Shown one piece after another: positions 9,001 to 12,000 of a stretch of DNA of 41,714 nt (positions within the stretch are counted from its first letter, which is position 1; each line of letters opens with the position of its first letter). This stretch comes from a virus (taxonomy: Duplodnaviria > Heunggongvirae > Uroviricota > Caudoviricetes). Made by a program: the position numbers. The stretch lies in the IMG/VR virus record IMGVR_UViG_2537562190_000018. One strand, given 5' to 3'.

Positions 9001-12000
9001 GCCAAATCGTTGCAAATCCCCGTGAAGGCAGATGCGTGCCAGTGGCGGTGACGCCAGGCTGAATGCGTTCGTCGTTGCCATTTTTCGGAATACCTCTCCC
9101 GTTTACTCAGTTGTTCAGGCAGATGGTGAAGCAGCTCACCGTTGCCGCAGTATATGGCGGCATGATTGGCCACCGATGCGCCAAAGCAGCACAGCAGGAT
9201 ATCGCCCGCCTGTGCAGAGGACAGGGGCACCCGGTAAAAGCCGGTGACCGCCATATTGTCCAGGTAAAGGTTCTGACCGTTACGCCACCAGTCATCCTCA
9301 CGCTCAAAATCCGGCATATCAATTCCCGCCAGATGGTAGGCATCCCGGAACAGCGTGTAACAGTCCGTCACCCCGTGCTCAAAGAGCCGTCCTGTCAGAT
9401 GTGGCACACAGCGGAATTTATGAATGTCCCCCCGGCAGACCAGCCACCAGGACAGTGCACTTTTTATCTGCAGCCGCCGGTCGGCCTCGCTCAGCCAGGG
9501 CAGACCACCGGGATGACTGTGGACCAGTGCCACAATCTCCCCCTGCATCTCTGCCCGCAGCCAGTCTTCCGGTGCAATACGAAAATACGCCTCAGGCTCT
9601 GCAGAGATATTCACACACGGCTATACCGCTCACCCTCCGGCGTTCTCACCACGAAGCCACACGACTCCGCAGGCACACACCGCCGGGCATGCGCCAGAAT
9701 CGCTGATTCTGTCTCTGTCATGGATTTACTGCGAAAGTTTATTAATGGAAAGGAAACCGCCAAAATTAGCCACCATGCCGCGCATCTCACACCCGCGCAT
9801 GCACTTGCTGCATCTGTCCTTACGGATATCCGTAAGTGGGGTTGTCGAACTCATCCGCCACCGCAGGACCGTTATACCCGCATTCATCTCCCCGGTAATC
9901 CCACATACAGGTGTTCGCCAGCATGATGCGACCAGGAAACAGCGCCCCGTCCGTCTCCGTCGGTGTTGCCAGCACAAACGAGGCTGTCATGGCCGTCAGC
10001 TCTGACATCTGCTCCACCACCCAGCGGTCGCTCAGCTCCTGCTCCGGGTCCGCTTCCGGATTGCCCGCCACAAAATTCACCGCATCCAGAAAACGGGCAT
10101 ACACCCGGCGGCGGACCACCGTGGCCCCCACCAGGCTCTGCAGGTCCTCCGCCATCCCGGTGACCAGACCAAACAGATTGGACACCGTCAGCGACGGTCT
10201 GGCACTGCTGCCCTTCCCGTTCATCTCAAAACCGCTGCCGTCAATCGGGTATACCTGATATTGCCGCCCCTGCCAGGTGACCGCCTCCCCTTTTTCATTC
10301 AGCTCATTACAGAAAAAATACCGCTCACCGCCCTGCACCGTCAGGTCAATTTCCCAGAGCACCACCCGCGGTGACTGCTCTGATTTAACCGACTCGTTCA
10401 GGCTTTCTTCGTGAATATTCTGCATCAGTTCACCACCTGCTCTATCGTGCAACTGAAATCACTGTACCGGGCATTATCCGTGACACTCCACTCACGGCAC
10501 ACAACCCTCACCGTCCGGTTATGTTTCGGCGGTCGCCACAAAAAGGCACGGTAACCACCATGCCACGATAAAAACTCTTCCAGCCAGCGCCGGGTTGACT
10601 CATCCGTCACCCGGAACACCGCCTGAAACGTCTTCAGTTGAGGATTCAGCCCTGTGGGGCGGCGCTGTTCATAACCGTCACCAAACCGCACCCTCACCAC
10701 CGACGGCTTCTCACTCACCTGCATCCCTTCACGCGGGACCAGATGCAGCGTTTTTATCTCAGCCACTCAGCATTCCTCCGTCACGTCGCATGGACAGCAT
10801 CACCGCCTGCACCCGCTGGTCAATCAGCTGCACAAGACTGCCTGCCGCCTCCGGCCCTATCTGGCCATTAGTCCCGTCATTCTGAATGGCGATATGGTAG
10901 ACCGGGGAATACACCAGACCCGCACTGCCGTTCATACTACCCACCGCGCGCACACCCAGCGAGCCATCCGCCGCCCGCGTCAGAGGCATAATGGCTTCAG
11001 GTCCGGCCTCCCCCATCAGCCCGGCCCCTTTTGCAAAGGCAAAGTACGTGGGCGTATCCACAATACTGTTGCTGTACGCACTCAGGTTTGCCGAGGTATA
11101 CACGCCGCCTTTTGCATTGGCCACCGCTCCGCCCAGCCAGTCACCAATGCTGCCGAGAAATCCTCCCGCACCGGACATACCGTTTGCCGCCGTCTTAATT
11201 CCGTTGACAATCGCGGCATTCATAAGAACTTTTGATATTTCCTGCAGCACTGATGAGGCCCAGCTGCGCCATTCCACTTTATTTCCGTTCAGCATCTCCG
11301 TGATGTTATTCACCATCCCTGAGATACCCTCCGTCGCAAGCTGTGCTGCCTGTGAGGCGTAATCGGACGCATTATCCACCCAGTTACTGAATCCCTCCTG
11401 CAGCCCTTTCTGCCAGTCCGCACGCTGCGCATCCGATTCGGCATAAAAGGCTGCCTGCTCTTTCAGACGTTCACTCAGATACTGTGCATTCTGCGCCAGA
11501 GCCTGTCTGTAAAAATCCTCACTGATATCCCCGGTCTGATACTGAGACTGAAGGTCCGCATCCTTCTGGCGGAAGCTGTCGCGGATCTGCTGCAACTCCC
11601 GCATGCGTTCTCTGGCTCGTTCCCCCTGCCCGTACCCCAGCAGTTCAGCATCATTCGACGCACGCGCAGCCGCATTCTCATTCTTTAGTGTCTCTTCCCG
11701 GGATCGCAACTGTTCCCGGATTTTTTGCTGGTCAATCAGGGCCGCATTACGCAGCAGCTCCTGCTTCTGCATCTCCGTCAGGGTTTTCAGTTCGCCCTGC
11801 GCAGTCTGGTATTTCAGCTTCGCCAGCTCTGTATTCTGCCCCACCAGTGCCAGTTGCTCTTTCTGCTGCTTCAGCAGCCGGGAAAAACTGTCTTCCGCTT
11901 TTTCCGTCTCTGATTTTCCACCCCGGGATTTGGGTTTATTCGCCTCGTTATTGCGCCAGGCTTCCAGGGCATTACTGATATAACGTTGTCTCGCCTCCTG

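Follow-up and report, generated by a model that had tools for sequence, protein, structure and literature searches.

The closest known counterpart of the gene treated here is gene L of phage lambda, whose product gpL (Pfam PF05100, Phage_tail_L; chain L of PDB 8IYK, 8IYL, 8K35 and 8XCG) is encoded in the tail tip gene order M-L-K-I-J. Residues 154–232 of lambda gpL form an iron-binding domain, in which Cys173, Cys182, Cys205 and Cys212 hold a [4Fe-4S] cluster (PMC10721106). A second described system bears on how such a gene may be broken. In quasipalindrome-associated template-switch mutations of Escherichia coli (Ripley 1982; the thyA hotspot; the Lovett-lab lacZ QP reporters) an imperfect inverted repeat is made perfect, and the gain of a perfect inverted repeat is the defining signature of the class (PMC7202029). 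Here we describe the L homolog of a lambdoid Stx1a prophage contained in a 41,714-nt stretch of DNA (IMG/VR record IMGVR_UViG_2537562190_000018; the whole stretch is called the window below). In this prophage L is frameshifted close to its 3′ end by one extra T, which also perfects a palindrome.

Gene L is divided between two reading frames

The L open reading frame (ORF) lies on the minus strand. It starts at an ATG at 10425, which overlaps the stop of gene M, and ends at a TAA at 9822–9820, giving a product of 201 aa that consists of 197 native residues followed by YGYP. Frame 0 before the break reads ...GPAVADEFDNPT, also read as ...NGPAVADEFDNPT or ...AVADEFDNPT, and then YGYP and the stop. 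The conserved end of L, TDIRKDRCSKC...FGGFLSINKLSQ, is encoded in the +1 frame, which carries the C-terminus TDIRKDRCSKCMRGCEMRGMVANFGGFLSINKLSQ to a stop at 9726–9728. A 42-aa ORF in this +1 frame, starting at the ATG at 9854, was called by a gene caller. The local sequence at the break is CCCACTTACGGATATCC, in which the TT occupies 9835–9834. Removal of one T (9834 or 9835) yields an uninterrupted 232-aa ORF, and the L span of 9726..10425 accordingly measures 700 nt, compared with 699 nt in intact relatives.

The initial annotation had attributed the break to a single inserted T near the C-terminus and had suggested that ACTTACGG would read through if it were ACTACGG. Both proposals are borne out: deletion of the T restores a full-length gpL homolog, and relatives carry either ACTACGG (strain 97-3250, which has the same L protein allele) or ACCACGG. 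The frameshift in the deposited sequence is therefore confirmed as a real observation and is no chance resemblance.

Alignment to lambda agrees with this repair. The repaired L matches lambda gpL (PDB 8IYK chain L) without gaps, residues 1–232 to 1–232 (E = 1e-123), with 178 of 232 positions identical (77%), and it matches PF05100 over profile positions 3–206 of 206 (E = 2e-91). As written, the PF05100 match is divided between the 201-aa product and the 42-aa ORF of the +1 frame (profile ranges of the two parts in Table 1). The tail tip order H(TMP)-M-L-K-I-J is found in the window with all genes on the minus strand, the tape-measure protein (TMP) gene at 10759–14001, M at 10425–10766, I at 8401–8982 and J as listed in Table 1.

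The break has a direct consequence for the iron–sulfur cluster. Residue numbering of the repaired L is that of lambda gpL, and C173, C182, C205 and C212 are all conserved, so that the repaired protein resembles gpL in its length of 232 aa, its genomic neighborhood and its four ligand cysteines. Unlike gpL, the ORF in the window ends after 197 native and four foreign residues, leaving C205, C208, C212 and the FGGFLSINKLSQ end in another frame. The four ligands are consequently not present in one polypeptide: the 201-aa ORF contains only C173 and C182, the frameshift precedes C205 and C212, and the last 35 native residues, including Cys208, are lost. Judged from the sequence, L as written would be non-functional whichever origin the extra T has, and a folded, cluster-bearing L is not expected.

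The extra T is private to one draft assembly

The intact allele closest in protein sequence is WP_001368648.1, found in Stx1a-type prophages of enterohemorrhagic E. coli (EHEC) strains 97-3250, 06_3235, UTAK-10 and DEC5B. These prophages encode the same protein apart from the break, and they share with the window the flanking M, K and I genes and an integration site next to torS/torT. Their L is a single ORF of 699 nt, whereas that of the window is 700 nt in two frames. Each of the first four relatives compared has an unbroken 699-nt L. In the case of strain 97-3250, the L coding span is identical to that of the window at every nucleotide but the extra T, with ACTACGG in place of ACTTACGG. The change is thus a pure +T relative to 97-3250, but C→TT relative to the closest prophage haplotypes, which are contained in two European Nucleotide Archive (ENA) contigs (L052 and L053).

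An 81-nt query centered on the lesion matched complete E. coli genomes at 5,408 places (1,737 genomes) and phage records at 150 places. The best of these matches reached at most 80 of 81 positions, and the extra T is absent from all of them. The exact 43-nt pattern with the extra T was likewise not found in IMG/VR. The 201-aa and 42-aa products, which are possible only with the frameshift, are on record solely in AEZT02000011.1, the 573,487-bp contig of draft whole-genome shotgun assembly GCA_000215225.2 of which the window is a part. The extra T is private to this one draft assembly.

All differences from the nearest relative fall in a 242-nt patch

The exact 1,080-aa TMP of the window is rare and is found in 10 contigs. 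Among these, the 232-aa L is intact in the ENA contigs L052 (approximately 50× coverage) and L053, as is the 247-aa K in L052. The sample from which L052 comes contains, in addition, the J contraction described below (contig L047). Another contig, L051, is 100% identical to the window across 9.9 kb. In a base-by-base comparison, L053 shows no differences from the window over 17618→9836 (7.78 kb) and over 9593→9283 (310 nt). All nine of its differences, three of them indels, are confined to 9594–9835, a patch that includes both the L lesion and a break in K (Table 1). The two breaks are 215 nt apart, and a stretch of 110 nt between the L lesion and the K-side cluster is free of differences. Given zero substitutions in about 8 kb but nine changes in 242 nt, gradual neutral decay cannot account for the patch, which must stem either from one event in vivo or from an artefact. 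The near-identical prophages in ERZ772720 and ERZ772714 have an intact L, but these may belong to strains other than the source.

Five short-read assemblies of this prophage stop inside L, at 10079–10372, and a contig of the Logan assembly SRR063739 ends at 10372, before the lesion is reached. Since short-read assemblies end inside L, the L-K-I-J stretch is a multi-copy repeat. Up to 12 copies of L per genome were found in a first search and up to 17 in a broader one.

Within the patch, the K lesion (9618–9622) is a complex change, TATATCCCTTG to TATA-GCCGTG, and private substitutions are found at 9594, 9632 and 9715. An 86-nt query over the K lesion gave a best match of 94.3% in complete E. 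coli genomes. The 211-aa ORF of K starts downstream of the lesion, and a look-up of that product therefore says nothing about it. Four of the six patch substitutions are synonymous in K, and the three indels fall at the microsites of greatest variation among natural paralogous alleles. Several odd bases of the patch match separate allele families, namely a Nissle-type spacer and K start, an Sx181-type GGT and a JNE151685-type AGCC. The T at 9594 was present in none of the 21 alleles inspected. In 4,391 E. coli records the patch has 15,344 homologous places, none of which is a donor allele, the best match being 96.2% over 291 nt. All sampled EHEC-type alleles, unlike lambda-like ones, are identical over 9726–9833.

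Three further accounts of the patch were considered and set aside. Exact-pattern scans for an unsampled, in-frame natural allele behind the K-side changes, with either CC or CCC allowed, were empty in IMG/VR, Joint Genome Institute (JGI) metagenomes and Genome Taxonomy Database (GTDB) representatives. Nearby direct or inverted repeats, as templates for the K lesion and for the remaining substitutions of the patch, offered covers of only 5–9 nt, no better than the relative's own sequence. An excess of transversions (six transversions to one transition) was dropped as a sign of base-call error, natural alleles at this locus having a transition:transversion ratio of about 1:1.

The lesion perfects an 18-nt palindrome

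The extra T creates a perfect 18-nt palindrome, the left arm CTTACGGAT being the reverse complement of the right arm ATCCGTAAG, where relatives have 12 nt or 14 nt (Table 1). Arm complementarity is raised as copying of the other arm predicts. Perfect palindromes of at least eight pairs are uncommon in the 41.7-kb window, which has only two, and of the 324 single-base insertions that could occur in the 80-nt neighborhood, just two produce one of 18 nt. This growth from 12 or 14 to 18 nt is what the E. coli quasipalindrome mutations described above would leave, and in that system a substitution and a 1-nt insertion can arise in one templated step that gives a frameshift (PMC7202029). Unlike the reporter systems, the event here would be deduced from one sequence. 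The second perfect 18-nt palindrome of the window, CAGTTAACATGTTAACTG, is found at 23860..23877, between the small terminase and HNH endonuclease genes.

Table 1. Position of the L lesion, of the patch around it and of other interrupted features in the window
Feature	Position	Strand	Evidence and remarks
L 5′ part, frame 0	9820..10425	-	PF05100 profile 3-170/206; residues 1-197 100% identical to WP_001368648.1
Lesion, TT for T (ACT ACG) or C (ACC ACG), net +1 base	9834..9835	-	Allele comparison
L 3′ part, +1 frame, TDIRKDRCSKCMRGCEMRGMVANFGGFLSINKLSQ and stop; Cys205, Cys208, Cys212	9726..9833	-	PF05100 profile 168-206 (same range for the 42-aa ORF); 25/35 identical to lambda gpL C-terminus
Perfect 18-nt palindrome CTTACGGAT/ATCCGTAAG created by the lesion	9819..9836	.	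Frame-0 stop TAA in right arm
Palindrome in relatives' ACC ACG allele, ACGGAT/ATCCGT			12 nt
Palindrome in relatives' ACT ACG allele, TACGGAT/ATCCGTA			14 nt
Patch with every L053 difference	9594..9835 (242 nt)	-	L lesion C→TT; L-K spacer deletion 9722; 9715; 9710; 9632; K complex change with 1-nt deletion 9618-9622; 9594
K (C40/NlpC-P60 tail tip peptidase), frameshifted by 1-nt deletion at ~9620, after residue ~33	8979..9721	-	tblastn; intact 247 aa in L052
J (tail tip/host specificity), frameshifted by (GA)5→(GA)4 at ~4947, ~85 codons before end	4691..8162	-	tblastn and product look-up
bet (RecT family), frameshifted by AAA→AA at 35411, private	35228..36012	+	Shared by 0/4,077 homologous places in complete E. 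coli genomes
IS3-family element, ~1.3 kb	32567..33874	+	Joins truncated ninH to truncated Nmad5 gene; orfA 32621-32962; transposase 32853-33833, rve domain

Origin of the extra T

The explanation that we favor, and to which we give about an even chance, is a local sequencing or assembly (consensus) error at the L-K junction. The junction lies inside the L-K-I-J stretch, of which EHEC-type genomes hold many near-identical copies. Under this explanation 454 pyrosequencing reads, a platform that we infer, would miscall the length of a homopolymer, reading T as TT, and the consensus rather than the DNA would be wrong. Two Logan SRR063739 contigs match the window and its flank without mismatch, and one of these, L021, is also without the two single-nucleotide polymorphisms that mark other strains. 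Compared with AEZT02, L021 shows two single-base homopolymer undercalls, T8→T7 and T6→T5. From these sequences, SRR063739 would appear to consist of 454-type reads, apparently from the same strain.

The distribution of the private indels is consistent with such an error. Four of the five are of a plain run-length type (T6→T7 at 4654, T→TT at 9835, the deletion at 9722, and AAA→AA at 35411). The fifth, at about 9620, is complex and is a CCC→CC change only relative to a hypothetical allele. By contrast, the one lesion that independent assemblies reproduce, the (GA)n contraction in J, is not a homopolymer change. In about 13.4 kb of unique prophage sequence no indels were found relative to independent assemblies, and the indels therefore concentrate in multi-copy parts of the prophage, as shown for L-K-I-J and presumed for bet. 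Like known 454 homopolymer or collapsed-repeat errors, the extra T is a one-base run-length change in a single draft, clustered with others in multi-copy prophage sequence. It is conceivable, too, that the patch is a consensus contaminated by paralogous reads, whose appearance it would have: merging the ACT TCC GAT of a lambda-like allele column by column with the ACC ACG GAT of an EHEC allele can give ACTTACGGAT, and a similar merge gives the L-K spacer. Over about 10 kb of the chromosomal flank of the source contig the tor and cbp genes are of normal length, a comparison with too little power to serve as a test of the error rate.

Several observations weigh against an error. The inserted base extends a 14-nt palindrome exactly to 18 nt, which a random base-call error does not predict and a template switch does. 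The affected run grows only from one base to two, unlike typical 454 errors, and 454 consensus errors are uncommon in runs this short. The assembly is a second version, and it keeps the homopolymer lengths of intact ORFs where the Logan assembly of raw reads fails. The 110-nt clean stretch inside the patch fits uniformly low quality poorly, and the 3′ end of L contains no other lambda-like bases, contrary to what a mixed-paralog consensus would lead one to expect. Finally, the prophage is already defective through J and a deletion linked to an insertion sequence (IS), and a real L lesion would be tolerable in it.

The principal alternative is that the extra T is present in the DNA of the strain as a recent inactivating quasipalindrome template-switch mutation. 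We hold this tentatively, as a serious possibility somewhat short of an even chance. The nascent strand would fold back on ACGGAT/ATCCGT and copy the other arm (ATCCGTAAG to CTTACGGAT), changing C or T to TT at once, and the mutation would persist in a prophage already free of selection on tail function. Such a single templated event accounts both for the growth of the palindrome and for the complex C→TT change. Dispensability of L is indicated by the J frameshift, which is reproducible in the lineage, and by the absence of the N-cI-cro-O-P-nin region. Moreover, the NCBI annotation pipeline PGAP flags frameshifted tail genes in finished genomes as well, in the TMP gene of DEC5B, K of MCJCHV-1 and J of NCCP 13946. 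However, the lesion is known from a single draft assembly, and none of thousands of homologous loci, nor any recorded product, shows the +T here, so the site is no frequent hotspot. A further difficulty is the dense cluster located 112 nt away, where eight private changes, two of them indels, fall within 129 nt and are templated by no nearby repeat. The nearest relative has no differences in 7.8 kb, and this cluster would need a second, independent explanation. If the quasipalindrome origin is correct, the lesion would serve as a clean example of quasipalindrome mutagenesis in nature.

The cluster and the extra T could also stem from a single replication accident, in which a template switch perfected the hairpin and a burst of nearby errors broke K. 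The locus would then be a natural, sequence-resolved case of quasipalindrome-driven pseudogenization in a decaying Shiga-toxin prophage. We regard this reading as unlikely.

Less probable still is gene conversion in vivo, with a divergent and already degenerate paralogous prophage of the same genome as donor of the patch 9594–9835 and hence of both lesions, in L and in K; we consider this very improbable. The sharing of patch bases with the Nissle-type, Sx181-type and JNE151685-type families and the predominance of synonymous changes among the substitutions in K (four of six) are in its favor, and a conversion tract would leave no trace over 9726–9833, where EHEC-type alleles do not differ. 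Yet the searches for a donor allele described above, in the 15,344 E. coli places (best 96.2% over 291 nt, and 94.3% at the K site), IMG/VR, JGI metagenomes and GTDB representatives, found none, and the T at 9594 is absent from all 21 inspected alleles.

A functional frameshift, with full-length L restored by programmed +1 ribosomal frameshifting or with L working in two pieces as the 201-aa product and a separately translated 42-aa Cys-rich fragment, is essentially excluded: although a +1 slip of tRNA-Pro at CCC-A would be chemically conceivable, a gene caller did predict the 42-aa ORF and the two frames together encode all four ligand cysteines, programmed frameshifts are conserved and this one is found in none of the E. 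coli and phage places or IMG/VR contigs searched, the 699-nt ORF is undivided in every relative (a carrier of the same L protein allele included), the CCC-ACU-UAC site lacks an in-frame stop, a slow or rare codon and the long homopolymer that transcriptional slippage would need, the 106 nt of RNA downstream fold no better than shuffled sequence (z = -0.21), and the breaks of K, J and bet fit damage rather than design.

The frameshift is thus an ordinary, one-off, non-programmed lesion in an already defective Stx1a prophage and is not novel under either of its two main origins. Its biological weight is limited: EHEC prophages routinely contain broken tail genes, and indel errors are routine in early draft genomes. 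What is mildly instructive is the completion of a palindrome by the inserted base. For annotation, the L and K genes of this Stx1a prophage merit a flag as frameshifted or possibly erroneous and should not be entered as short novel proteins.

Other broken genes and the state of the prophage

The window contains a lambdoid Stx1a prophage with stxA at 30644–31588 and stxB at 30365–30631, both 100% identical to Stx1a, and Q at 32098–32529. Among finished genomes it is closest to the Stx1a prophages of O26/O103-type EHEC, at approximately 97% identity across the structural genes. The int gene is found at the right end (40641–41714). An exact-protein search with Int did not retrieve the source contig. 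In that contig the prophage has tor genes beside its left end, and in related prophages tor genes adjoin int.

Every intact coding sequence of a close relative was compared with the window by tblastn. Frame switches were found in L, K and J, and the remaining structural genes are in a single frame. The initial annotation was correct as to the single T in L, but it had not noticed the break in K, the frameshifts in J and bet, the 18-nt palindrome or the lost regulatory and replication region.

Among these lesions, only that of J is reproduced by independent assemblies. The 85-aa product of the J contraction is found in eight independent contigs (AEJU01000117, BJQL01000042, JAVQOC010000001, Logan ERR200287 and SRR11425063, and ENA ERZ772720/ERZ772721), and NCCP 13946, whose J is of a different background, has the same (GA)n contraction. 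Because the 85-aa product recurs in independent assemblies, the J lesion is real, whether inherited or recurrent, and the slippage site is probably a recurrent one. Downstream of J an intrinsic-terminator-like hairpin is found at 4635..4675 on the minus strand, GGCGTCAGAAATGACGCC followed by T7, where the two nearest J-region relatives have T6; this T6→T7 at 4654 is private to the window. The bet frameshift is private as well, and the truncated N-terminal fragment of Bet has no exact-protein record.

The IS3-family element, whose size and family fit IS629/IS1203, marks a larger loss. In the junction region (32525..33875) the last 14 codons of ninH abut the middle of an Nmad5-family gene, and the nin-P-O-cII-cro-cI-N region is absent from the window sequence. 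This junction is either an IS-mediated deletion that immobilized the stx1a prophage or a draft mis-join between IS copies. Taking together the reproducible J frameshift and the IS-linked loss of the regulatory region, the prophage is truly defective. If the lesions are real, it would not assemble tails. With J broken and the immunity and replication region apparently missing, it would be an immobile carrier of stx1a regardless of the origin of the L lesion.

The portal region (16984..19244, minus strand) contains two ORFs, one of 454 aa with a PF04860 match and one of 299 aa without a Pfam match, joined by an ATGA overlap. The same two-ORF layout is found in relatives where the region is captured (for example, at 18183..20767 of relative L005), and PGAP calls one "frameshifted" portal gene in 06_3235. 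A length difference of approximately 324 bp and a variable stretch at 17450–17718 are also found here. Rather than a pseudogene, the two-ORF portal may represent a conserved arrangement.

The left end of the window (1..2200, minus strand) and the adjoining flank (L020) harbor EHEC-prophage cargo, namely a type III secretion system effector gene of the NleG family (193 aa, according to the source annotation) and a 242-aa hypothetical gene. Just outside the window, a 217-aa gene occupies the place where a relative has an EspJ-family effector gene.

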